A DNA stretch of 64,000 bases from a virus (IMGVR_UViG_3300024496_000012); one strand, 5' to 3'. Numbered from the stretch's first letter, positions 11,213-34,642 are shown. Translations and numbers: made by a program. The notes: generated from the letters alone by a model not told the origin.

Positions 11213-11237
11213 CGAGCTCAGTAAATCTCCATTAAAT

Positions 11238-11269
11238 AATAGGACTACTTGACGTAGTCCTATTTTTTT
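11238..11269 (+). terminator. Rho-independent terminator closing the lysis operon
   Basis: AATAGGACTAC-ttgac-GTAGTCCTATT followed by a T run. Confidence 0.8.
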
Positions 11270-11277
11270 CGTATAAT
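11249..11277 (+). promoter_or_regulatory. Sigma70-type promoter for dnaJ-def-clpA
   Basis: TTGACG-17 nt-TATAAT. Confidence 0.75.
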
Positions 11278-11286
11278 GTGAGAACC

Positions 11287-12144
11287 ATGGATTATTATTC
11301 AACACTAGGATTGCAAAGAGGTGCTTCCGACGAGGAGATAAAAAAAGCCTATAGAAAAATGGCTATGAAATATCATCCTGATCGCGGTGGGGACCAAAAT
11401 AAGTTTAAAGAAGTCTCTCAGGCTTATGAGTTTCTAAGCGACCCTGAGAAGAAACGAATGATCGATTCGGGTATCGATCCTAATCAGCCTAACCCGGGAG
11501 GTTTCCACTTCCATCAAGGACAGGGGAACCCATTCGAGTTCCATTTCAACACAGGTACTCCTTTTGATGATATTTTTGGTAACTTTGGCTTTGGGCAAGG
11601 TTTCGGTGCGAGGCCACAACCAAAGAATAAGAGTTTCAGCATTAACATCGAAGTTACTCTAGAAGAAGTTCTAAAAGGCAAAGAGCTTAATGCCGAAGTA
11701 GGTGTCCCTGGCGGAAAGAGCAAAATGATTAATATTTCTATTCCTGCAGGAATAGAACACGGCCAGCAGATACGCTTCGAAGGGATGGGCGATAACAGCA
11801 TCCCTCATCTTAGAGCCGGCGACCTATTAGTAAATGTTTTTGTAAGACCGCATCCTGTATTTAGGAGAGATGGCAGTTCATTGATAGTAGAGCATAGAGT
11901 TAGCGTGTGGGATGCTATCATAGGATCTAAAGTTGATATAAGAACTCTAGATGGAAAACAACTTAGTATAAATGTTCCTCCGGGAACACAGCCCGATACT
12001 ACATTGAGCTGCAGAGGTGAGGGGCTGCCAGATATAAGAACTAGACAACGTGGAAATCTGTTGATACATATCAATATAGAAATCCCAAGAAATCTTTCAC
12101 CATTACAGATAGCTAGAATAGAACAACTTAAAAATGAACTTTGA
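11287..12144 (+). CDS. dnaJ: DnaJ-class (CbpA-like) co-chaperone lacking the zinc finger
   Basis: J domain with HPD, G/F-rich linker, C-terminal DnaJ domains (GDLLV, GNLLI). Confidence 0.9.
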   Translation: MDYYSTLGLQRGASDEEIKKAYRKMAMKYHPDRGGDQNKFKEVSQAYEFLSDPEKKRMIDSGIDPNQPNPGGFHFHQGQGNPFEFHFNTGTPFDDIFGNFGFGQGFGARPQPKNKSFSINIEVTLEEVLKGKELNAEVGVPGGKSKMINISIPAGIEHGQQIRFEGMGDNSIPHLRAGDLLVNVFVRPHPVFRRDGSSLIVEHRVSVWDAIIGSKVDIRTLDGKQLSINVPPGTQPDTTLSCRGEGLPDIRTRQRGNLLIHINIEIPRNLSPLQIARIEQLKNEL

Positions 12145-12631
12145 ACTAGGACCACACGACAGTCTCGTAGAAAAAAGCACACCATGGGATTTTTCATCCG
12201 ACGGTGATGCTAAACAGTTAGAAAAAGACATGATTGATTTCATGATCGCCAGCAACGGCATTGGTCTCGCTGCTAATCAAATAGGATTGACCAAGCGAGT
12301 TTTTGTTATGGGTAGTAATAGTATTAAAGACTTTCCTGCACCGTTTGCTGTGTTTAATCCTGTTATTAAAGAAGTAAGTGAAGAACAGGTCCTAGATCAA
12401 GAAGGCTGTCTAAGTTATCCCGGTCTATATCTTAAGGTTAAACGTCCAGCATGGATCGTAGCCGAATATCAAGACAGTGAAGGAAACCTTAAAGAAATCA
12501 AAGTAGATGGATATCTCTCTAAATGTTTTCAACATGAATACGATCATTTAGAGGGCATTTGTTTTGTTGACAAAGTAAGTAGAATGAAGTTAGACTTAGC
12601 TATGAAGAAGGTAAGGAAAATAAAAAAATGA
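12134..12631 (+). CDS. def: Peptide deformylase
   Basis: GIGLAANQIG, EGCLS, QHEYDHLEG motifs. Confidence 0.95.
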   Translation: MNFELGPHDSLVEKSTPWDFSSDGDAKQLEKDMIDFMIASNGIGLAANQIGLTKRVFVMGSNSIKDFPAPFAVFNPVIKEVSEEQVLDQEGCLSYPGLYLKVKRPAWIVAEYQDSEGNLKEIKVDGYLSKCFQHEYDHLEGICFVDKVSRMKLDLAMKKVRKIKK

Positions 12632-14973
12632 TCGAACCCAGCCAACAACTACAACTTATTTTTGAAAACTCCGTTTCTGTTGCCAAGCAGCTCAATCACG
12701 AATATGTGACTATCGAGCATCTATTGTTTGGCATCGTCAGCGACGAGGATTCATTTAAACTGCTCGAAGGGTTTGGTGCTGATGCTCTGTTTATAAAAAC
12801 CAACATCGAGCATTATATAAAGAACAATCTTAATGATATCAAAACAACTGATCCTAATACTCGTCCTAGAAAAACCAATAGTGTAGAGCGTGTTTTAAAT
12901 CGTTGTTTTACACAGGTACTGTTCAGCGGCCGTCAGCGTATGGAAGTAGCTGATGTTATCATCAGTATCCTTAGTGAAAAGAATAGTTTCGCATTTTACT
13001 TCCTGCAGAAGGGCGGGGTCACTAAAGAAAAGTTTGTCAAGTACTTCCAAGAAAATGTAGCTGTACACGAAGACGAAGAAGAATCACCACAACAAATAAC
13101 AACTACCTCAGGAGCGGATAGAATCTTGAATCAATACTGCACGAACCTTAGCTTGCGAGCAAAACAAAAAGCTATTGATCCTGTTATCGGAAGAGACGAG
13201 GAACTAGAAAAAACACAACTCGTTCTAGCACGTAGGAACAAGTGTAATGTATTAATGGTAGGAGATCCTGGCGTAGGTAAGACTGCTATTGCAGAAGGTC
13301 TTGCACGTAAAATCTTTGAAAAGAAAGTACCGAAGTTTATTCAAGATCACACAGTCTATGCATTAGACATCCCTGCGTTACTCGCAGGCAGCAAGTATCG
13401 TGGTGACTTTGAAGAACGCATTAAGGCTGTGCTAACTGCACTCGAACGCAAAGGCAAGATTATTTTATTCATCGATGAAGCACATATGATGAACGGTGCA
13501 GGTTCTGCTAGCCAGAACAGCAACGACCTTGCTAACATTCTTAAGCCTGTATTGACTAAAGGTATCATTAAACTCATTGCTTCAACTACTTGGGAAGAAT
13601 ATCGCAAGTACTTTGAAAAGGATCGTGCGCTGATGCGTCGATTCCAACGTATTACTATTGATGAGCCAACTCCAGAGTTGACTGTTAAGATCATCAAAGG
13701 AATCCGTAAGTATTACGAAAAGCACCATAACGTCAAAATCACTGATGCTGCTATCGAACAGGCAGTAAAACTATCGATCAAATATATGGCAGATAAGAAG
13801 TTGCCAGACAAGGCCATTGATATTATTGACTGTGCCTGCGCTCGTTACAAGATCAAGGATGATGAGACAATGGAAGGCGTCGAGCAGATTGTTGATCTAG
13901 AACAGGTAACCTATGAGCTTAGTAAAATGATCAGTATGCCGCTAGAAACAGTAGCGCAGAAAGAATCAAAGAACCTTGCTGACCTCGAAGATGGGTTGAA
14001 GGCTTCTGTGTTCGGTCAAGAAGATGCTGTTCAGATTCTGCTTGATAAGATCTTTGTTTCGCAAGCAGGTATGAAAGCACCAAACAAGCCTATTGGCAGT
14101 TTCTTATTCCTAGGTCCCACAGGTACTGGTAAAACAGAAACAGCTAAGACTCTAGCCGACAAAATGGGCATGGAACTTATTAGGTTTGATATGGGCGAAT
14201 ATCAAGAAAAGCATTCAGTTGCACGTCTGATCGGTGCACCTCCTGGATATGTAGGTTACGAAGATAACGCAGGTATGCTTATTACCAAACTACAAGAACA
14301 TCCTAATGCTATTCTGTTGCTCGACGAAATCGAAAAAGCACATCAAGATGTAAGCAATATCCTATTGGCATTCATGGATAATGGATTTGTTACAGGCAGC
14401 AACGGTAAAACCGCAGATGGCCGAAACACTATCCTTATCATGACGTCAAACTTAGGTGCAGCAGATAATGAACGCAACACTATCGGGTTTGGCGATTTGG
14501 CCAAAGATGGTGAAGATGATAAAGCGGTCAAGAAGTACTTCGCACCAGAGTTCAGAAATCGTTTAGATGCTATTGTTAAGTTCAAGAGCCTTGAGCCAGA
14601 AGTGGTTATTCAGATCGTTAAAAAGTTTGGAAAAGAACTCAACGATCAGCTTAAAGATAAAGGCATCGAAATCGTTATCAACAATGAAGCTGCTAAATGG
14701 TTGGCCGAAAAAGGTTACAATAAAAAGATGGGTGCTAGACCGTTGGCCAGATTGATCGATAACGAAATCAAGAGTCCATTGAGTCGTCGTGTGCTGTTTG
14801 GTGATCTTGTCAACGGTGGACGAGTGACTGTTTCAGTAAATGATAATAAACTCGAGTTTACAGTGAGCGAACTAGTTAAACCTTTAACCAAAGAGCAGAG
14901 AAAAGCTGCTAAACTACTGGCATTAGAAAATGGAACATCTGACCAAGACAACCAATCGGAAGTTCTACAATAA
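12628..14973 (+). CDS. clpA: Clp protease ATP-binding subunit ClpA
   Basis: HEYVTIEHLL N-domain, two AAA+ modules (GDPGVGKT, GPTGTGKT), IGF ClpP-docking loop, no ClpB/ClpC-length middle domain evident. Confidence 0.9.
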   Translation: MIEPSQQLQLIFENSVSVAKQLNHEYVTIEHLLFGIVSDEDSFKLLEGFGADALFIKTNIEHYIKNNLNDIKTTDPNTRPRKTNSVERVLNRCFTQVLFSGRQRMEVADVIISILSEKNSFAFYFLQKGGVTKEKFVKYFQENVAVHEDEEESPQQITTTSGADRILNQYCTNLSLRAKQKAIDPVIGRDEELEKTQLVLARRNKCNVLMVGDPGVGKTAIAEGLARKIFEKKVPKFIQDHTVYALDIPALLAGSKYRGDFEERIKAVLTALERKGKIILFIDEAHMMNGAGSASQNSNDLANILKPVLTKGIIKLIASTTWEEYRKYFEKDRALMRRFQRITIDEPTPELTVKIIKGIRKYYEKHHNVKITDAAIEQAVKLSIKYMADKKLPDKAIDIIDCACARYKIKDDETMEGVEQIVDLEQVTYELSKMISMPLETVAQKESKNLADLEDGLKASVFGQEDAVQILLDKIFVSQAGMKAPNKPIGSFLFLGPTGTGKTETAKTLADKMGMELIRFDMGEYQEKHSVARLIGAPPGYVGYEDNAGMLITKLQEHPNAILLLDEIEKAHQDVSNILLAFMDNGFVTGSNGKTADGRNTILIMTSNLGAADNERNTIGFGDLAKDGEDDKAVKKYFAPEFRNRLDAIVKFKSLEPEVVIQIVKKFGKELNDQLKDKGIEIVINNEAAKWLAEKGYNKKMGARPLARLIDNEIKSPLSRRVLFGDLVNGGRVTVSVNDNKLEFTVSELVKPLTKEQRKAAKLLALENGTSDQDNQSEVLQ

Positions 14974-22265: not shown

Positions 22266-22313
22266 GATCAGCCATAAATGATCAGTTGGGTATTTGCGAG
22301 CCGAAAATCGCAA
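22266..22313 (+). promoter_or_regulatory. Tandem hairpins abutting the polB SD (candidate translational operator)
   Basis: GATCA-gccataaa-TGATC and TTGCGA-gccgaaaa-TCGCAA. Confidence 0.6.
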
Positions 22314-22323
22314 GGAGAAAAAT

Positions 22324-24993
22324 ATGAGTTACGTTGACGCATTCTATGATCGCGAAGACGACATTATTCGTGTCGTTGAGCGCAATGAAAAAGGTGAAAG
22401 GCATTTTAAAGATTATCCTGCCAAGCATCTTTTCTATTATTACGATCCCAAGGGCAAGTATCAAAGTATCAAAGGTGAACCACTCACCCGTGTAGTCTGT
22501 AAAAATATCAAAGAACTACGAAAAGAACTTGCTATACATTCAAACAAAAAGCTATACGAATCAGACATCAATCCTATCTTTAGATGTCTAGAAGACCATT
22601 ATATCAACATTGACGCTCCAAAACTAAATGTAGCATTTTTCGATATTGAGGTCGATTTCGACCCTGCTAGAGGATATGCTAGCCCAGACGATGCATTTAT
22701 GCCTATCACATCTATCGCTGTGCATCTACAATGGGTTGACACATTAGTTTGTTTAGCTATGCCACCTAAGACGCTATCTATGGCTGAAGCAACCAAGGCT
22801 GTAGAAGATTTTCCTAATACCATGCTATTCGACAACGAAGCAGATATGTTAGATGCTTTTCTAGATCTGATACAAGATGCTGATGTTTTAAGCGGGTGGA
22901 ACAGTGAAGGGTTTGATATTCCCTATACGGTCAATCGTGTTACCAAAGTCCTAAGCAAAGAAGATACACGTCGTTTCTGCCTTTGGAACCAATATCCTAA
23001 GAAAAGAGAGTATGAAAAGTTTGGTAAGACAGCGGTCACATATGATCTAATCGGTCGTGTTCACTTAGATAGTCTTGAGCTATATCGCAAATATACCTAT
23101 GAAGAGCGTCACACTTATCGACTAGATGCGATCGGTGAGATGGAGATTGGCGAAAACAAAACAGTCTACGAAGGCACACTCGATGCGTTGTATAACAATG
23201 ACTTTAAAAAGTTTATTGAATACAACAGACAAGATACAAGCCTACTTGATAAGTTAGATAAAAAACTAAAGTTCTTAGATCTGTCAAACAAGATCGCACA
23301 CGAAAATACTGTATTGCTACAGACAACTATGGGTGCGGTAGCTGTTACTGAACAGGCTATTATCAATGAAGCACATCGCAGAGGTATGATCGTTCCTAAT
23401 CGTAAGAAGATGGAAGAACACGGTGATACACAGGCCGCAGGTGCGTATGTTGCATATCCTAAGAAAGGCATCCACGAGTGGATTGGTTCTTTAGATATTA
23501 ACTCATTGTATCCTAGTGCCATTCGTGCATTAAACATGGGGCCCGAAACTATCGTAGGACAACTGCGCCAAGATGGGACCAAAGCACACCTCGAAGCTGA
23601 AATGGCCAAAGGTAAGAGTTTTGCGGCCGCTTGGGAAGGCATCTTTGGAAGTCTAGAATACACTTCAGTGATGGAAAGAGAAGTAGGACGAGACATAACT
23701 ATCGACTGGGAAGGTGGCGGCAGCGATACCCTTAGTGCCGCTCAAGTTTATGATCTTATATTTGAAAGTAATCAACCATGGATGATCAGTGCCAACGGTA
23801 CTATCTTCACATATGAAACTGAAGGAATCATTCCTGGTCTGCTAGCTCGTTGGTATAAAGAGCGTAAAGAGATGCAGGCCAAACTTAAAGAATCTATCGC
23901 GGCAGGTAACAAGATTGAAGAAGAATATTGGGACAAGCGTCAACTGGTTAAAAAGATTAATCTTAATAGCCTTTATGGTGCAATCCTTAATCCTGGTTGT
24001 CGCTTTTTCGATAATAGGATCGGGCAATCTACCACGCTTACGGGCAGAGCTATTGCAAAACATATGGCCAGTAAAGTAAACGAAATCATTACCGGAGAGT
24101 ATGACCATATCGGTCGAGCTATCATCTACGGTGACACAGACTCTTGTTACTTCTCTGCGTATACTACGCTAAAGAAGGACATTGAGAAAGGATTGATTCC
24201 TTGGACTAGAGAATCAGTCGTAGAACTTTATGACACCATAGGAGAAACTGTAAATGGAACCTTCGTCAAGTTCATGTCAGACGCTTTCCACGTGCCAAAA
24301 TCTAGAGGAGAGGTCATCAAGGCAGGTCGCGAGATTGTTGCAAGCAAAGGACTCTTTATTACAAAGAAACGATATGCAGTCCTCTACTACGACAAAGAAG
24401 GCAAGCGATCAGACGTCGACGGCAAACCAGGCAAGATTAAAGCCATGGGGCTCGACCTCAAGCGGTCAGATACCCCGGTTGTTATCCAAGACTTTCTCAG
24501 TGAAGTCTTGACCCGAGTACTAAATGGCGTACCTAAAGAAGAAGTGTTAGAATATATCACTGACTTCCGAACCGATTTTAAAACTAGACCAGGTTGGGAA
24601 AAAGGTTCACCTAAACGTGCCAACAACATTACAGAGTATGCAGCCAAAGAAAAGAAAGCAGGCAAGGCCAATATGCCAGGTCATGTTAGAGCTTCCTTAA
24701 ACTGGAATACTTTGAAACGTATGTTTGACGACAAGTATTCTATGACTATCGTAGACGGTGCCAAGGTCATCGTCTGCAAGCTCAAAGAAAATCCTATGGG
24801 CTATACATCTGTGGCTTACCCAGTCGACGAACTGAGATTGCCGCAGTGGTTTAAAGATCTTCCATTTGACGATCATCAGATGGAAAATACCGTTATCGAT
24901 GAAAAGCTAGAAAACTTGATCGGGGTCCTTGAATGGGACATCAGTCAAACTAGAAGCGATAATACCTTTAACAAGTTATTTGATTTTGAGTGA
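22324..24993 (+). CDS. Family B DNA polymerase (T4 gp43-like)
   Basis: FFDIEVD exonuclease, SLDINSLYPS, KINLNSLYG, YGDTDS; AAGGAG SD before ATG 22324. Confidence 0.97.
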   Translation: MSYVDAFYDREDDIIRVVERNEKGERHFKDYPAKHLFYYYDPKGKYQSIKGEPLTRVVCKNIKELRKELAIHSNKKLYESDINPIFRCLEDHYINIDAPKLNVAFFDIEVDFDPARGYASPDDAFMPITSIAVHLQWVDTLVCLAMPPKTLSMAEATKAVEDFPNTMLFDNEADMLDAFLDLIQDADVLSGWNSEGFDIPYTVNRVTKVLSKEDTRRFCLWNQYPKKREYEKFGKTAVTYDLIGRVHLDSLELYRKYTYEERHTYRLDAIGEMEIGENKTVYEGTLDALYNNDFKKFIEYNRQDTSLLDKLDKKLKFLDLSNKIAHENTVLLQTTMGAVAVTEQAIINEAHRRGMIVPNRKKMEEHGDTQAAGAYVAYPKKGIHEWIGSLDINSLYPSAIRALNMGPETIVGQLRQDGTKAHLEAEMAKGKSFAAAWEGIFGSLEYTSVMEREVGRDITIDWEGGGSDTLSAAQVYDLIFESNQPWMISANGTIFTYETEGIIPGLLARWYKERKEMQAKLKESIAAGNKIEEEYWDKRQLVKKINLNSLYGAILNPGCRFFDNRIGQSTTLTGRAIAKHMASKVNEIITGEYDHIGRAIIYGDTDSCYFSAYTTLKKDIEKGLIPWTRESVVELYDTIGETVNGTFVKFMSDAFHVPKSRGEVIKAGREIVASKGLFITKKRYAVLYYDKEGKRSDVDGKPGKIKAMGLDLKRSDTPVVIQDFLSEVLTRVLNGVPKEEVLEYITDFRTDFKTRPGWEKGSPKRANNITEYAAKEKKAGKANMPGHVRASLNWNTLKRMFDDKYSMTIVDGAKVIVCKLKENPMGYTSVAYPVDELRLPQWFKDLPFDDHQMENTVIDEKLENLIGVLEWDISQTRSDNTFNKLFDFE

Positions 24994-25053
24994 TTTGACA
25001 CTTGTTTTTTTCTCAAGATCTAAATATAATCAGATTATAACTGGAGAACTCTA

Positions 25054-25791
25054 ATGAAAGACATTTTACAAGATATCGTGGGTCATACACAGAACCTCGG
25101 TTTTCTAACTACCGTCAAGGTAACAGGTACAGAAGAAAAGACAACTATTAACTCAATGGCAGATGACCGTTCAGTTATCATGGAAGCTGAAACTTCTGCT
25201 CCATATGCAGACATGATTGGCGTATTCGGTATGCCGCAACTGCAAAAGCTAAAGTATCTGCTAGATGGTGCAGAATACAAAGATGATGCTAAAATCACTA
25301 TCACTACAGCAGAACGCAATGGCGAAACTATTCCTGTAGGCATCCACTTTGAAAACAAAGACGGTGACTTCAAGAACGACTATCGTTTTATGAACTCAGA
25401 AATCATCAACGAAAAGATGAAGACTGTCAAGTTCCGTGGTGTTAAGTGGGACGTAGAAGTAGAACCTACTGTTGCTGCTGTACAGCGTTTTAACTTCCAA
25501 GCAGGTGCTAACAACGAGCATCCAACATTCCTTGCCAAGACAGAAGGTGGAAATCTAAAGTTTATCTTCGGTGATGCATCAACACACGGCGGAGAGTTTA
25601 TCTTTGCACAGAATGTACCAGGTAAACTTGATCGTGGTTGGACTTGGCCTGTGTTGCCTATCTTGAGTATTCTTAAGATTTCAGATGTCAACAACACCAA
25701 GATGTCATTGAGCAATGAAGGCGCTATCCAGATCACGCTAGACAGCGGATTGGCAACTTACAAATACATTATTCCAGCACAGGCGGCCTAA
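25054..25791 (+). CDS. Probable sliding clamp (gp45-like)
   Basis: 245 aa, alternating alpha/beta pattern, directly after polB, clamp loader present; no diagnostic motif. Confidence 0.55.
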   Translation: MKDILQDIVGHTQNLGFLTTVKVTGTEEKTTINSMADDRSVIMEAETSAPYADMIGVFGMPQLQKLKYLLDGAEYKDDAKITITTAERNGETIPVGIHFENKDGDFKNDYRFMNSEIINEKMKTVKFRGVKWDVEVEPTVAAVQRFNFQAGANNEHPTFLAKTEGGNLKFIFGDASTHGGEFIFAQNVPGKLDRGWTWPVLPILSILKISDVNNTKMSLSNEGAIQITLDSGLATYKYIIPAQAA

Positions 25792-26189
25792 TGATTAGTA
25801 CTATTATGCCCACAGGTAGATATGTGCAGGTGTCAGGAGGCGGCGCCAGCACATACGTCAATAACTATTCTGGTTCACAGGGTGTCGGCAACATGCGATA
25901 CAATACCAGTATGCAATGCATGGAAGTCTTTGACGGTCAGAACTGGCAAAAGATAAACATGGCAACCGCTTCAGTTGGCCTAAATCACGAAGCAGAGTCA
26001 TTGCTAGACTGGGCCCGTGATAAACGTGCCGAAGAACTACAGTGGAAATCATTGGCTGAAACTAACTCCGCTGTTAAAATAGCATTAGAAAATCTAGAAA
26101 AAGCAAAACAACAACTAAAAATAACTGCGACATTGGCACAAGAAACATCACGTGACTATGGAGAAGTTATGGAACAGGCAAGCCCATAA
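25791..26189 (+). CDS. Hypothetical protein
   Basis: Coupled ORF. Confidence 0.65.
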   Translation: MISTIMPTGRYVQVSGGGASTYVNNYSGSQGVGNMRYNTSMQCMEVFDGQNWQKINMATASVGLNHEAESLLDWARDKRAEELQWKSLAETNSAVKIALENLEKAKQQLKITATLAQETSRDYGEVMEQASP

Positions 26190-26190
26190 T

Positions 26191-27732
26191 ATGAAAAGAC
26201 AAATACACCTTACACCATTGCAGAAAGATTATGCTGTATATCTACCTGCTATCAGTAGTTTTTACAGCACCTATGTAGCTAAACAACGACTCGAAGAGTT
26301 TGTGCCTAACGACCGTATTCCTAAAGGAATGGATCGAGGTATCGAAGGAATGAACTTTCTTAACGAAGAAGAAGGTTACTTTACCTATACCTATGCGCTG
26401 TATTCTGCAGGACATGCTCAGTTAGATCTCCAGAAAAGCCTTGAGCAAGAATCAATGATACAGCAACGTAATAGAGGTCGTACCGTTATCGTAGGAGATT
26501 CCGGCGGATATCAGATTGGTAAAGGTGTTCTTAAGTTTGATTGGTTGAACTTCGAAGGTGCAGAAGCTAACAAGACTCGTAAAAAGATTCTTGAGTGGTT
26601 AGAACTAACTGCTGACTGGTCTATGATGCTGGACGTTCCGACTTGGGCGTGTGACCACATTCACAGTCCAAAGACTGGGCTAAAGACTTTTGAAGACTGT
26701 CTAGAAAAGACTCGCTTCAATAACAAATATTTCCTTGATAATCGCCTAGGGCAAACTAAATGGCTTAATGTGCTTCAAGGTGGTGACTGGGATACTGCAC
26801 AACAATGGTACGAAGGTGTTAAAGAGTTTAGCGATCCTAATGGCCCCTATGCTGGTAAAGAAGCAGAAGGATGGGCCTTTGGTGGTGCCAACATGTGCAA
26901 GATGGACATTACCCTCAAACGTTTGATGGTGATGCGTGACGAAGGAATGTTAACCGGTAAGAACTGGATCCACTTCCTGGGTACAGCACAGTTAGACTGG
27001 AGTTGTTACCTAACACAGATCCAACGTCAAATCCGTAAGCACATCAATCCAGAACTGACTATTAGCTTTGACTGCGCTAGTCCATTTATTGCTACAGCTC
27101 ACGGCCTTGTTTACACTAATGCACAACATCTTAACAAGCGTTGGTCAGTAATCATGGACAAGGCTCCTGATAATAAGGCACTAGCAGGCAGCGATATTCC
27201 GTTTCCTTTTGAAAGCGAGTTTGGTAGCAGATTAACAATGGGGGATATCTGCTATATGGCTCCCGGTATGCTAAACAAACTTGGCAAAGAAGGTAAGACT
27301 AGTTGGGATAGTTTTGCATATGCTCTAATGATGGGTCATAATGTAGAATGTCATATCAAGGCAGTACAACGTGCTCAACAGTTAATGGATATCGAATGCA
27401 CTAGATTCAAACCAGATTGGCGTAACTGGGGTCTCGAAGGCAAGAAAGAGATCGAGTTAAGCGAATGGGTTCCTAGAAAGATCCTTTATTTCGGCACATT
27501 CATCGAAGAACTGTTTAATACTAAAGATAAAACAGAAGCATTTGATCTTATCAATAATGCCGGTGGATTCTTAAAGAGTCTCGAAGGTGCTCGACTACAA
27601 GGTGGTCCTGCTGATAACGAGTTTAATAACTTGTTTGATTGGGGTGATGCCAAAAAAACTGATCCTGAAAACTTTGATCAACAGGATGATGACGATTTAC
27701 GTGCTTTAGAAACCGAACTTACACAGGAGTAA
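26191..27732 (+). CDS. dpdA: TGT-fold DNA guanine transglycosylase (DpdA-like)
   Basis: GDSGGYQIG, MLDVP, HFLG and SFDCASP match TGT substrate-binding and nucleophile Asp motifs; context of folE and queE. Confidence 0.75.
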   Translation: MKRQIHLTPLQKDYAVYLPAISSFYSTYVAKQRLEEFVPNDRIPKGMDRGIEGMNFLNEEEGYFTYTYALYSAGHAQLDLQKSLEQESMIQQRNRGRTVIVGDSGGYQIGKGVLKFDWLNFEGAEANKTRKKILEWLELTADWSMMLDVPTWACDHIHSPKTGLKTFEDCLEKTRFNNKYFLDNRLGQTKWLNVLQGGDWDTAQQWYEGVKEFSDPNGPYAGKEAEGWAFGGANMCKMDITLKRLMVMRDEGMLTGKNWIHFLGTAQLDWSCYLTQIQRQIRKHINPELTISFDCASPFIATAHGLVYTNAQHLNKRWSVIMDKAPDNKALAGSDIPFPFESEFGSRLTMGDICYMAPGMLNKLGKEGKTSWDSFAYALMMGHNVECHIKAVQRAQQLMDIECTRFKPDWRNWGLEGKKEIELSEWVPRKILYFGTFIEELFNTKDKTEAFDLINNAGGFLKSLEGARLQGGPADNEFNNLFDWGDAKKTDPENFDQQDDDDLRALETELTQE

Positions 27733-30376: not shown

Positions 30377-31473
30377 TGGCAAGGGTTTTCCTAGTAGATT
30401 TGGAATCAGTTGAAACTCGTTACACTTGCGAATGGAAAACCCATTTCCCTGCACTTCTCAAAAAGGAGGGGCATGATGTTCAAGTTATCGATGGCCCTAC
30501 GGATATTCCTGCGGCCACTACTCCTGGTGCTTTTCTTAATTTTGGTGGCACCAATATATACAAGTCTAGTCAAGTTGAGAAAATTGGCAGACTATTTTGC
30601 TCCGGATCAGTGGGCCCTGGTGATCATTTTATTTTTGCAGATGCTTGGCATCCTGGGATCATTAACCTCAAATACATGAGCGAACTTCTTGGCATTCCTG
30701 TCAAGATTCATGCTCTATGGCATGCTGGCAGTTATGATCCTCAAGACTTCTTAGGACGCCTTATTGGTAATGCTCCTTGGGTTAGAAACGCTGAGAAGAG
30801 TTTCTATCATTCAATCGATTATAACTACTTTGCCACAGAGTTCCATGTAAGACTGTTCTTCGATGAACTCTTACATGGAGGAATCCCTAGCGAGAATCCT
30901 TGGTACTACGAAGACTGGGAAGAGCGTTACGATAGCGGTAAAATCGTTCGCTCTGGATGGCCCATGGAATATATGAAAGATACTTTGGTCATGTATAAGA
31001 ATATGCCAAAGCGCGATCTTATCTTATTTCCACATCGTATCGCTCCGGAGAAACAGATAGAGATATTTCAAGATCTAAAAGAACATCTTCCTCAATACGA
31101 GTTTGTAGTCTGTCAAGAACAACAGCTCACTAAAAGAGAATATCATAACATGCTCGGAGAGGCCAAACTAGTGTTTAGTGCAAACCTGCAAGAAACATTG
31201 GGTATTAGTTGGTACGAAGGTGCTATCGTAGATGCTATTCCTATGGTTCCAGATCGTTTAAGCTACAGCGAAATGGCAATGGAAGATTTCAAATATCCTA
31301 GTGAATGGACTGAGTCGTTTGATGCCTATACCAAGCATAGAAACGCAGTCGTAGACAGAGTCCAACACTACATGGAAAATTATAAATCTTACCTCCCCCG
31401 CCTAAATAAACAGGTAGATCGATTAACAGAAAACTTTTTTAGTTGCAATAAGTTACTAGAGAAGTTAAAATAA
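30376..31473 (+). CDS. GT-B (GT4-like) glycosyltransferase
   Basis: HRIAPEKQ, EX7E motif ETLGISWYE. Confidence 0.75.
   Translation: MARVFLVDLESVETRYTCEWKTHFPALLKKEGHDVQVIDGPTDIPAATTPGAFLNFGGTNIYKSSQVEKIGRLFCSGSVGPGDHFIFADAWHPGIINLKYMSELLGIPVKIHALWHAGSYDPQDFLGRLIGNAPWVRNAEKSFYHSIDYNYFATEFHVRLFFDELLHGGIPSENPWYYEDWEERYDSGKIVRSGWPMEYMKDTLVMYKNMPKRDLILFPHRIAPEKQIEIFQDLKEHLPQYEFVVCQEQQLTKREYHNMLGEAKLVFSANLQETLGISWYEGAIVDAIPMVPDRLSYSEMAMEDFKYPSEWTESFDAYTKHRNAVVDRVQHYMENYKSYLPRLNKQVDRLTENFFSCNKLLEKLK
31443..31471 (+). promoter_or_regulatory. Sigma70-type promoter upstream of folE
   Basis: TTGCAA-17 nt-TAAAAT. Confidence 0.55.
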
Positions 31474-31516
31474 TATACATTATGTCATCCACGACATTAA
31501 CTCGGAGAAAATCAAC

Positions 31517-32260
31517 TTGGAAAATAAAGAAACAGCATTAGACGTCATGTTCGGCGACGGCGGATATGAAGAAGCTTATCTTGGCGATCATATTCGCTTT
31601 AAGATGAAGCGTGAAGGCAAACGCTTTTGGGCCGGTGACAACATCAGCGACTACTTACACGAAGGCGATAAAGAACAACTAATCGACGAAGCGACAGAAG
31701 CATTTGAACTAGTGCTTGACCGTTTACTGATCGATCGTGAAAGCGATCCTAACAGCAAGGGCACCGCTCGCCGACTAGCTAAAATGTATTTTAACGAAAT
31801 AATGGCAGGAAGATATGACCCAGCACCAGACGCAACAGCTTTCCCAAATGACACGCAGGATCGTTACGAAGGTATGCTGGTTGTTCGCAGTGAGCTTCGC
31901 AGTATGTGTAGCCATCATCACCAACCTGTGGTTGGTGTTGCTTATATTGGTCTTATTGCTGCCGAGAAGCTCATTGGACTCTCAAAGTACACCCGCATCG
32001 CCCAGTGGTGTGCCCGACGTGGAACTCTCCAGGAGGAACTTGCTAATGACATTGCTAGGGAAATCCAGAAAGCAACCGGAGCCAAAGACCTAGGAGTTTA
32101 CATCCAGGCTACACATGGTTGCTGTGAGAATCGTGGCATCATGGCACACTCTAGTCTTACACAGACTACTGTCTTAAAGGGCGCCTTTAAAGATGATGCT
32201 GGAACGAAGAAAGAATTCTTTGACAACATCAAAATGCAACAGGAGTTTGCACCTCGATGA
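31517..32260 (+). CDS. folE: GTP cyclohydrolase I
   Basis: [30 protein letters not shown]; TTG start with GGAG SD. Confidence 0.95.
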
Positions 32261-33276
32261 GAATCGAAGACGAAATCAAACTTGACTTCAAAGATGTTCT
32301 TATAAGGCCTAAAAGATCTACACTTTCTAGCAGAAAAGAAGTAGACCTGAATAGAACTTATAAGTTCAAATACAGCGGATGGGAATGGTCAGGTATTCCC
32401 ATTATGGCATCAAACATGGATGGTGTCGGAACTATGGAAATGGCCGATGCACTATACTCTCAGAGAATGTTTACGTGCCTTGTAAAATCTTATACCGAAG
32501 ATCAGTTTGAAGATCTTGTTGCTAATGTCGGCGGAAACTATTTTGCAGTTAGCACAGGAACTAGTGATGCTGATTTTCAAAGACTTACTAGGATTATAAA
32601 CAGCTATCCAGAAATTCATTTTATCTGTGTAGATGTTGCTAACGGGTATAGTGAACACTTTGGTGATTTTATTTCTAAAGTCCGTAAGACATTTCCTAAA
32701 TGCACGATCATTGCCGGTAATGTTGTAACCGCAGACATGACACAGGAGTTAGTTTTACGTGGAGCAGATATTATTAAAGTGGGCATCGGTCCTGGGAGCG
32801 TTTGCACTACTCGTGTACAAACTGGCGTTGGTTATCCTCAGCTTAGTGCTATTATGGAGTGCGCTGATGCTGCTCATGGTCTTGGCGCTCATATCATCGC
32901 AGACGGCGGTTGTACCTGTCCAGGTGACGTGGCAAAAGCCTTTGGCGCTGGTGCTGACTTCGTTATGCTAGGCGGTATGCTAGCAGGACACGATGAAGGC
33001 GGAGGCCATATCGATAATGATAAGGTTATATTTTACGGAATGAGTTCAGAGACTGCTATGAATAAGCATAGCGGCGGTGTTGCAGAATATCGAAGCTCAG
33101 AAGGTCGTACTGTAGAAATCCCCTATCGTGGTCCTGTACAGAAAACTGTACAAGATATACTAGGCGGCTTGCGTAGCACCTGCACGTATGTTGGTGCTCC
33201 TAGTCTTAAGCAGTTGAGTAAGTGTACCACATTTATCCGTGTCAACAGACAGATCAACGATGTGTTCTTAAAATGA
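32257..33276 (+). CDS. guaC: GMP reductase
   Basis: [51 protein letters not shown]. Confidence 0.93.
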
Positions 33277-33707
33277 TACAACCACTTAAAGATGAACTAA
33301 TGGTTCAACAACAGTTGCCTGCAAAGAACAAAAGAAATCGAGCTTGGCAACATATGGTCGGTGTGATCATGCTGAACCAAACTGGACGCAAACCAGTAAA
33401 ATATGTACTGCCGTTATTCTTACAAAAATGGCCTACTCCCAAAAAGTTCTTATGGGCTCCGATAGACGAAGTCAAGGAGGTTATTTGGCCATTAGGAATG
33501 TACAATATTCGTTTCCAAAGACTCAAACTTATGACTGCTGATTTCTTGACTTGGGACGGAAATGATGCTACAATGTTATATGGAATAGGAAAATATGGTA
33601 GCGATAGTTATGAAATCTTTTTTAAGAAAAACTATACCGTACAACCTAAAGACAAAGAGTTGATTAGATATCTAAAGGAAGAAGTGAATGTTCCTGAAAC
33701 TGCTTGA
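33273..33707 (+). CDS. HhH-GPD DNA glycosylase, MBD4-like minimal domain
   Basis: [40 protein letters not shown]. Confidence 0.8.
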
Positions 33708-34158
33708 TAAGCTAGGAAGAAAACGCATCATTTATGATCGCGTACACAACGAACCGTATCTCGAACGATACTATCTTTTCTTAAAAGATAGAGATCGTTT
33801 TCCCTTTAATGTATTCTTGCACAAGTTCTTGAAAGGTGATCCAGACGATGTGCATGATCACCCATGGCCTTATGCTACGCTAATCTTGAAAGGTGGCTAC
33901 TATGAATGGGTACCTGAGTTTGATAGTAACGGTACTATGTTGGGTCAGCGCCGTCATTGGCGTGGCCCTGGTCACTTTAGGATCTGTAGTCCTAATTCTT
34001 ATCATAGGATCGAACTGAAAGAAGGTGTTACTGCCTGGACATTGTTTATGCCAGGACCTCATAAGCGTGAATGGGGATTCTTAGTTAAGAACAAATGGAT
34101 TCAACACGAACAATATCTTAAGGAGAGATATGAACAAGCTCATAATCGACCAGCATAA
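33688..34158 (+). CDS. Cupin-like protein
   Basis: HDHPW...GGYYE...YHRI. Confidence 0.6.
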   Translation: MFLKLLDKLGRKRIIYDRVHNEPYLERYYLFLKDRDRFPFNVFLHKFLKGDPDDVHDHPWPYATLILKGGYYEWVPEFDSNGTMLGQRRHWRGPGHFRICSPNSYHRIELKEGVTAWTLFMPGPHKREWGFLVKNKWIQHEQYLKERYEQAHNRPA

Positions 34159-34642
34159 CATGACTGGTCTAGTCAGCAAAATCGGTAGGAATATTGCTAC
34201 CGGAGGTTGGCGTCCTGATTATATCGTAGGGCTCACTAGAGGTGGGCTTGTTCCCGCTGTTATGCTCAGTCATTATCTTAATGTACCGTTGAATACATTG
34301 AATGTAAGTCTTAGAGACGGTGGCGAATGCGATAGTAATCTATGGATGGCTGAAGATGCATTTGGGCACAATCAAGAGTTTCCTAAAAACATACTCATCG
34401 TAGATGATATTAATGACACTGGTGCTACCTTTAACTGGATCATGGAAGACTGGCCTAGTGGATGTTTTCCTAATGACGATCACTGGAACTATGTGTGGAA
34501 TAAGAATGTTAAGTTTGCTGTTCTAGTAGATAATCTAGCCAGCAAGTGTAATGTAAAAATGGACTACGTTGGCATGGAAATCAACAAAGCCGAAGATGAT
34601 GTCTGGGTTGATTTCCCCTGGGAAGATTGGTGGTCAAAATGA
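34130..34642 (+). CDS. Type I phosphoribosyltransferase (xanthine/guanine PRT-like)
   Basis: GLTRGGLVPA, PRPP motif ILIVDDINDTGAT, WVDFPWE. Confidence 0.88.
   Translation: MNKLIIDQHNMTGLVSKIGRNIATGGWRPDYIVGLTRGGLVPAVMLSHYLNVPLNTLNVSLRDGGECDSNLWMAEDAFGHNQEFPKNILIVDDINDTGATFNWIMEDWPSGCFPNDDHWNYVWNKNVKFAVLVDNLASKCNVKMDYVGMEINKAEDDVWVDFPWEDWWSK

Follow-up and report, generated by a model that had tools for sequence, protein, structure and literature searches.

Background

Peptides known to recruit proteins to sliding clamps include the tails of gp43, gp33 and gp55 on the T4 clamp gp45, the PCNA-interacting peptide (PIP) boxes on PCNA, and the QL[SD]LF motif on the bacterial beta clamp. For gp43, the DNA polymerase of T4 and RB69, binding gp45 is the established role of the tail. 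Among eukaryotic PCNA clients that attach through PIP boxes are DNMT1 and UNG2, which modify or edit bases at the replication fork. A possible viral counterpart is described here, in a 64,000-nt stretch of DNA from a virus (IMGVR_UViG_3300024496_000012; this whole stretch is “the window” below): a DpdA-like DNA guanine transglycosylase encoded close to a T4-type DNA polymerase and a sliding clamp, and carrying in its tail a copy of the polymerase's C-terminal peptide.

Enzymes of the DpdA families (bDpdA and DpdA1-4) put 7-deazaguanines into DNA (PMC6884629, PMC10516641). The extent of guanine replacement by phage DpdA enzymes runs from < 0.1% to 100%, a range that has been discussed with no mechanism offered, in a paper with 0 mentions of a clamp (PMC10516641). 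Full-text literature searches on DpdA or deazaguanine together with sliding clamps likewise found no description of a clamp-docking peptide on DpdA. Only once before has a DNA-modifying enzyme of a phage been claimed to work on the phage's own clamp: the T4 alpha-glucosyltransferase, through an interaction with gp45 (cited in PMC6024577 from Sommer et al. 2004).

The phage behind the window is a jumbo phage and a relative of PA5oct (Wroclawvirus); IMG/VR contains many metagenome-derived contigs closely related to it. Its replisome is of T4 style: a family B polymerase and a clamp of PCNA fold, with a gp44-like clamp loader in relatives.

The polymerase peptide and its copy

The features that carry the argument are all on the plus strand:

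22294-24993, +: family B DNA polymerase of T4 gp43 type (PolB), 899 aa; PF00136, PF03104, phrog_262 (E 5e-198)
24958-24990, +: PolB C-terminal peptide DNTFNKLFDFE (from the translation), its last 11 residues, followed by the stop codon; presumed clamp-interaction peptide
25054-25791, +: sliding clamp of PCNA/gp45 fold, 245 aa (AlphaFold2 [AF2] model, predicted local distance difference test [pLDDT] 91.8; Foldseek; VIA-align)
25791-26189, +: small open reading frame (ORF) of 132 aa between clamp and dpdA; weak phrog_1325 match only
26152-27732, +: DpdA-like DNA guanine transglycosylase with tRNA-guanine transglycosylase (TGT) fold, 526-aa ORF (AF2 mean pLDDT 90.9; Foldseek)
27595-27660, +: disordered linker of the DpdA-like protein that carries the motif, residues 482-503 (AF2 pLDDT < 50)
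27613-27642, +: DNEFNNLFDW, the copy of the PolB peptide, residues 488-497; presumed clamp-docking motif
27688-27726, +: conserved acidic amphipathic helix DDDDLRALETEL, C-terminal, residues 513-525 (pLDDT 75-82)

PolB, whose true start is likely ATG 22324 (MSYVDAFY), is collinear with T4 gp43 (899 and 897 aa, 27% identity, E 1e-59) to about 55 residues before its end; its terminal peptide therefore occupies the position of the T4 tail (...KASLDFLFG), where gp43 has its clamp-binding element. The DpdA decamer is identical to the PolB tail at 7 of 10 positions and adds an F/W pair. Scored ungapped against each of the window's 95 remaining proteins, the PolB 10-mer found its best match in the DpdA 10-mer (BLOSUM62 score 40; runner-up 27), and in residue-shuffled window proteomes (n=300) the maximum was 25.4 +/- 2.9, with 0/300 reaching 40: within the window the match is beyond chance, and no other real gene there carries the peptide.

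The initial annotation had reported this match, its place at the start of a probably disordered acidic tail, and polB, the probable clamp gene and dpdA lying nearly adjacent. Both translations reproduce the identities and the F/W pair; the linker is modeled as disordered and is followed by the acidic helix; and the gene order is polB, the 245-aa protein, the 132-aa ORF and the dpdA-like gene. Residue numbers for the DpdA-like protein follow the longer ORF (26152-27732), although the gene likely starts at ATG 26191 (M14), because homologues align only from residue 13-19 on. The stop of the 132-aa ORF falls 1 nt before this likely start, and a small ORF is found at the equivalent place in PA5oct and in locus L084. 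PA5oct, L084 and L194 retain the D-D/E-x-L-x-x-L-E pattern of the helix, and so do several of the distant DpdA-like representatives.

Conservation and co-variation

The proposal of clamp tethering in the initial annotation was made to depend on conservation of the motif in orthologues, and conservation is what was found, both in close relatives and in nine lineages diverged from the window. The close relatives are 80 IMG/VR loci of 77-85% identity. Their PolB proteins end in ...F-x-[KSNQ]-LF-[DST]-F-[EDN], and the LF core of the DpdA motif is kept in nearly all of them (for example NTFGSLFDF, YGNKDLFDW and NEFNKLFTV; the exception, L013, has LV in place of LF), with the remaining linker varying freely around it. 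An [LM]F peptide is present on both proteins in 10/10 diverged lineages examined, the window included:

Window: PolB FNKLFDFE, DpdA FNNLFDW
PA5oct: PolB HFDSLFGW, DpdA SFNSLFDV
Vibrio phage 2.275.O: PolB NNTDLFDW, DpdA NNNDLFGW
L084: PolB KFESLFD, DpdA TFDGLFDI
L085: PolB LDDLFDF, DpdA VNNLFDFS
L086: PolB VNKMFTF, DpdA AMKLFDFGG
L194: PolB LFDSLFG, DpdA VFDAMFET
L195: PolB IFNSLFSF, DpdA HFSSLFSF
L196: PolB AMKLFNY, DpdA AKSLFEF
Phosso: PolB TFNDLFTF, DpdA VEGLF

Across nine of these lineages (Phosso, read afterwards, was left out), with the tails anchored on [LM]F and only the flanking positions scored, a PolB tail resembles the DpdA tail of its own lineage more than permuted pairings do, whether measured by BLOSUM62 (sum 130 vs a mean of 53, p 0.0007) or by identities (24 within lineage vs 14 permuted, p 0.002). 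Such co-variation of aligned tails is the pattern that would be expected if both track one partner.

The tendency extends into the wider family. An exhaustive HMMER search gave 890 DpdA-like representatives at the 50% clustering level, and 108 full-length ones (27-51% identity) among the best 150 of these were examined for tail enrichment. An [LM]F pair lies in the last 45 residues of 52/108, compared with 15.8 +/- 3.6 for internal windows, and [LMI]F within the last 7 residues of 31/108, compared with 3.4 expected.

The polymerase genes of two of the lineages are interrupted. In PA5oct the gene (L001:1605-6831) is split by a homing-endonuclease gene, and its C-terminal part still ends in the clamp-type tail. 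In L196 (L196:4955-9154) an intein-splicing domain belongs to the N-terminal part, and the two parts are set apart by a 340-aa ORF of its own; here too the tail is retained on the C-terminal one.

Other carriers of the peptide

Three whole genomes were scanned for the motif: G001, which is a close relative and 98% complete, PA5oct, and Vibrio phage 2.275.O. The only proteins with the motif as a terminal tail in all three are PolB and DpdA. A third carrier appeared in the close relative only, an FkbM-type methyltransferase (PF05050) of 354 aa that ends ADNQFESLFDFG:

G001 339996-341060 (= L117:16999-18060), -: FkbM-type methyltransferase, PF05050; orthologues in L154-L193; outside the 64-kb window

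All of its complete IMG/VR orthologues (39/39, 66-100% identity) end in LFDFG, LFDFGA, LFDFT, LFDFQ, LFD or LFS, and the terminal peptide persists even where the linker preceding it is altered. The enzyme may tailor a modified base or sugar on DNA. This third carrier had not been predicted, and its appearance strengthens the reading of the peptide as a docking element.

Several other LF-containing segments were set aside. The EFxxLFGF near the N-terminus of the methyltransferase is not the motif, its L being lost in many orthologues, and KFGxLF[EQ]I, which all three genomes have in a structural-type protein of 1150-1320 aa, is part of a conserved region there that is folded. LF-type endings on a DnaE-like 200-aa protein of PA5oct, a phrog_11279 protein, the large terminase subunit, the close relative's QueD, a tail tube protein and a dNMP kinase were dropped as either unconserved or belonging to structural or packaging proteins. 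In Vibrio phage 2.275.O, the gene right after dpdA (L003:9732-10844, NVP2275O_469) starts MFNELFDF, as if it had the motif at its N-terminus; the other genomes yielded no homologue of it.

The sliding clamp and its loader

The product of the gene at 25054, which the initial annotation took for a probable clamp, proves to have the fold of one. Its AF2 model (a monomer, built from a 16-sequence alignment) retrieved PCNA-type clamps throughout the Foldseek matches listed, to rank 50 (E 3e-11, TM-score 0.65-0.70), the African swine fever virus clamp among them. VIA-align superposed it on clamps with Z of 17-18 over 220-229 of its 245 residues (in one match, Z 17.8 and root-mean-square deviation 3.3 over 225/245), so that the two repeated beta-alpha-beta-beta-beta domains of a clamp monomer are matched along their full length. 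The protein has no match in Pfam, among PDB sequences, or among PHROGs of known function, and an hhalign comparison of the clamp family with T4 gp45 gave no signal (probability 0.9%). By modeled fold, then, the 25054 product is a sliding clamp, and its likeness to other clamps is one of fold only.

Homologues in PA5oct (EST35_0314, L001:6912-7658) and Phosso (L002:7181-7903) are labelled “structural protein” or “virion structural protein.” Judging from the model this annotation is probably wrong, and the fold result offers the correction for both phages.

Clamp loaders resembling gp44 were found in PA5oct, in Vibrio phage 2.275.O, in Phosso, and in two close relatives that are nearly complete (353 and 331 kb), with matches from E 3e-14 (Phosso) to 7e-29. 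Phosso is of further interest for its gene order: polB is 180 kb distant, and the clamp gene is still immediately upstream of dpdA.

The DpdA-like protein and its gene neighborhood

In a Foldseek search of the PDB, the best 50 matches to the model of the DpdA-like protein were all tRNA-guanine transglycosylases (E 3e-7, probability 1.0), and its structural neighbors in BFVD are phage TGT/DpdA proteins (Achromobacter phage Motura TGT, Vibrio phage nt-1 DpdA2), with a Cellulophaga phiST protein as a weak neighbor. In 58 diverse homologues (27-50% identity), D116 (in GDSGGxQ) and D307 (in SFDC) are invariant and D161 (in LDxP) is nearly so; these are presumably the TGT catalytic aspartates, corresponding to D102, D156 and D280 of Z. 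mobilis TGT.

The protein has no Pfam match at E <= 0.01, the TGT family PF01702 included, and no PHROG match, and PDB sequence searches with the clamp or the DpdA-like protein singly, or with a profile of the 58-sequence DpdA family, returned no TGT and nothing else, so both proteins are identified by their folds only. The family profile and the Pfam TGT model found nothing in the genomes of CP220 (DpdA3) or nt-1 (DpdA2); no phage genome matched the locus by megablast, and a scan of IMG/VR with the Vibrio phage DpdA was equally empty. Fold comparison places the protein nearest those of the Motura and nt-1 type, and it may represent a further DpdA subfamily.

The deazaguanine genes lie downstream in the window:

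31469-32257, +: GTP cyclohydrolase I (FolE), first step of 7-deazaguanine synthesis; PF01227 (E 7e-39)
34085-34639, +: phosphoribosyltransferase; PF00156 (E 2.5e-11); recurs beside DpdA-like genes in L086, L089 and L091
36072-36926, +: radical-SAM protein, probably QueE-like; weak PF04055 match (E 4e-4)

The syntenic block of PA5oct carries an annotated QueE, and QueE, QueF, QueC and FolE flank the homologues in PA5oct, the Vibrio phage, L085, L086, L089 and L091. Going by the modeled fold and this setting, the DpdA-like protein most likely removes guanine from DNA and puts in its place a 7-deazaguanine base supplied by the neighboring FolE/QueD/QueE genes.

An IMPDH/GMP-reductase-like gene (window 32224-33273) recurs with the phosphoribosyltransferase beside FolE and the DpdA-like gene (also in L086, L089 and L091); one possibility is that the two products salvage the guanine released by DpdA into GTP for deazaguanine synthesis. 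Inside the same block is a gene for a small HhH-GPD (EndoIII/Ogg-like) protein (window 33222-33704; PF00730, E 4e-5). Host END nucleases detect hypermodified DNA through an inactive EndoIII domain, and PA5oct DNA is resistant to several enzymes with G in their recognition sites (PMC12191111); jumbo-phage comparative genomics mentions only the presence of a deazaguanine system in PA5oct (PMC7824862). The genes for a ClpB-like double-AAA chaperone (window 12583-14970) and for a DnaJ homologue (window 11236-12141) lie upstream of the block of replication genes; a ClpB-like gene is also present in L195.

Possible roles of the peptide

The explanation favored here, with a probability of roughly 70%, is that the peptide is a shared clamp-docking element recruiting DNA-modifying enzymes to newly replicated DNA. 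Since the PolB peptide matches the position of the clamp-binding gp43 tail, and DpdA carries a copy of it, DpdA most likely docks in the same pocket of the clamp. The motif, (N)-x-F-x-x-L-F-[DE]-[FWV], placed after the catalytic domain on a flexible linker, would dock the enzyme into the hydrophobic pocket of the phage clamp; clamps moving with the polymerase, or remaining on the lagging strand, would gather DpdA at newly synthesized duplex, where the tethered enzyme might scan processively, with base exchange on nascent DNA closely trailing the fork. The FkbM-type methyltransferase with the same peptide in close relatives suggests that several DNA-modifying enzymes may use the clamp as a “tool-belt.” A more ambitious version, tentative and on balance doubtful, would have the DNA-acting steps of hypermodification in a large group of jumbo phages carried out on such a tool-belt (DpdA exchange, then methyltransferase tailoring, perhaps others), each enzyme being recruited by its copy of the polymerase peptide, with tethering enabling genome-wide rather than sparse guanine replacement; it would apply to hundreds of close IMG/VR relatives and to diverged lineages in other metagenomes, and if true, presence or absence of the peptide should predict modification level across DpdA subfamilies.

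Several observations weigh against clamp docking. In sequence the clamp is not similar to T4 gp45, so the binding mode of gp43 and gp45 is carried over by way of the fold and the homology of the polymerases, and the 64-kb window itself encodes no clamp loader. The window's DpdA has its motif internally, 29 residues from the end, whereas that of the polymerase is terminal (in many relatives the DpdA motif, too, is the extreme C-terminus). About half of the distant DpdA-like family members are without the motif, these representatives being shorter and more distant; and the co-variation comes from a small sample (9 lineages) of tails hand-aligned on the LF anchor. DpdA2 of Vibrio phage nt-1 ends AEYPDFKS, with no copy of the nt-1 gp43 tail (TLESFFG), so that tethering would not be general to DpdA enzymes. 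In Vibrio phage GR7B, a phage without a T4-type PolB, the tail of the TGT protein is Lys-rich; the contrasts with GR7B and nt-1 fit a modular tail, each as one single case. Finally, the interaction of T4 alpha-glucosyltransferase with gp45 was not reproduced in vitro or in vivo (2025 preprint).

Another possibility, unlikely although it survives best among the alternatives, is that the peptide is a localization tag that docks its carriers on some other common partner in the replication factory, such as the single-stranded DNA-binding protein, the helicase or primase, or a protein that forms a scaffold or compartment. That the peptide is conserved, co-varies and recurs on three proteins indicates a shared partner without naming which, and the missing gp45 similarity of the clamp and the second conserved element in the DpdA tail, the acidic helix, could be taken in the same direction. 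Against this, the polymerase that has the peptide is a gp43 homologue and has it at the homologous extreme C-terminus, for which clamp binding is the established role in T4 and RB69; and in Phosso, where polB has moved away, it is the clamp gene that remains beside dpdA.

Could the enzymes instead be riding host clamps? An LF core after a small or acidic residue does resemble QL[SD]LF, and SLFEF, GLF or DLFG closes the sequence of several distant members of the family, so that binding to the host beta clamp (DnaN) rather than to the phage clamp would be conceivable; it is nevertheless very unlikely, as the bacterial motif's conserved Gln is found in none of the PolB, DpdA and methyltransferase tails, which have F or N three residues before the L, as the phages encode a clamp and loader of their own, and as the peptides of two phage proteins co-vary over lineages that differ in host (Pseudomonas, Vibrio and Sinorhizobium among them). 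That the resemblance has no docking function at all, and reflects chance or recombination between low-complexity tails or a role in folding or solubility, is scarcely credible: short linear motifs are easily over-read, and the motif-less half of the distant family fits such a view, but none of the shuffled proteomes attained the observed score, the LF core of close relatives outlasts the divergence of the linker (L013, with LV, aside), the tails are enriched 3-fold to 9-fold and co-vary with those of PolB, and the peptide recurs independently on the methyltransferase in every complete orthologue (39/39).

Comparison with known systems

Peptide recruitment to sliding clamps is already known as a kind; DpdA, as a proposed client, is new. 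A clamp-docking peptide on a transglycosylase gives a concrete hypothesis, namely that base exchange is coupled to the replisome, with possible consequences for the extent of modification. The same approach may be of wider use: scanning phage proteomes with the polymerase tail exposed the methyltransferase as an unsuspected candidate client, and could reveal further DNA-acting enzymes.

The nearest likeness is to gp43 and gp45 of T4 and RB69. The polymerases are homologous and collinear, both with a hydrophobic-acidic peptide at the extreme C-terminus that recurs on other proteins; the clamp gene adjoins polB, and a gp44-like loader is found in relatives. The initial annotation had described the T4 peptide as a type common to gp43, gp33 and gp55, and the tails read here agree: SLDFLFG, TLDFLL and SLDFLYEAND share [ST]LDFL[FLY], so that one peptide common to all clamp clients is the T4 rule. 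The differences are in the consensus, which is F-x-x-L-F-[DE]-[FW] here; in the clamp, PCNA-like by fold and without detectable gp45 sequence similarity; and in the additional clients, which would be DNA-modifying enzymes (DpdA, the methyltransferase) rather than the transcription factors of T4.

With the known DpdA families the protein shares the TGT fold, the conserved catalytic Asp residues, and genes encoded together with FolE, QueD, QueE and QueC; unlike them it is much longer (513-526 aa), has a long insertion, lacks a CxCxxC zinc site, and bears the clamp-type tail. With the T4 alpha-glucosyltransferase it would share the idea of a hypermodifying enzyme that acts just behind the fork through the phage clamp. 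That case was one of biochemical interaction, with no shared peptide described, whereas the evidence for DpdA is the polymerase's own peptide, of which the enzyme has a conserved copy; because the T4 case is now disputed, DpdA would, if the proposal is true, be the best-supported instance of clamp use by a phage enzyme that hypermodifies DNA.

If clamp docking is correct, the system would also be a viral counterpart of DNMT1 and UNG2 on PCNA. The motif is not a PIP box (Q-x-x-[LIM]-x-x-[FY]-[FY]), having no Gln and a different spacing, and the chemistry here would be base exchange by transglycosylation, in a virus, instead of methylation or excision. Common to both would be a base-flipping enzyme, a short disordered peptide and a clamp of PCNA fold (the binding being, here, the proposed part), and with them the logic of the tool-belt.

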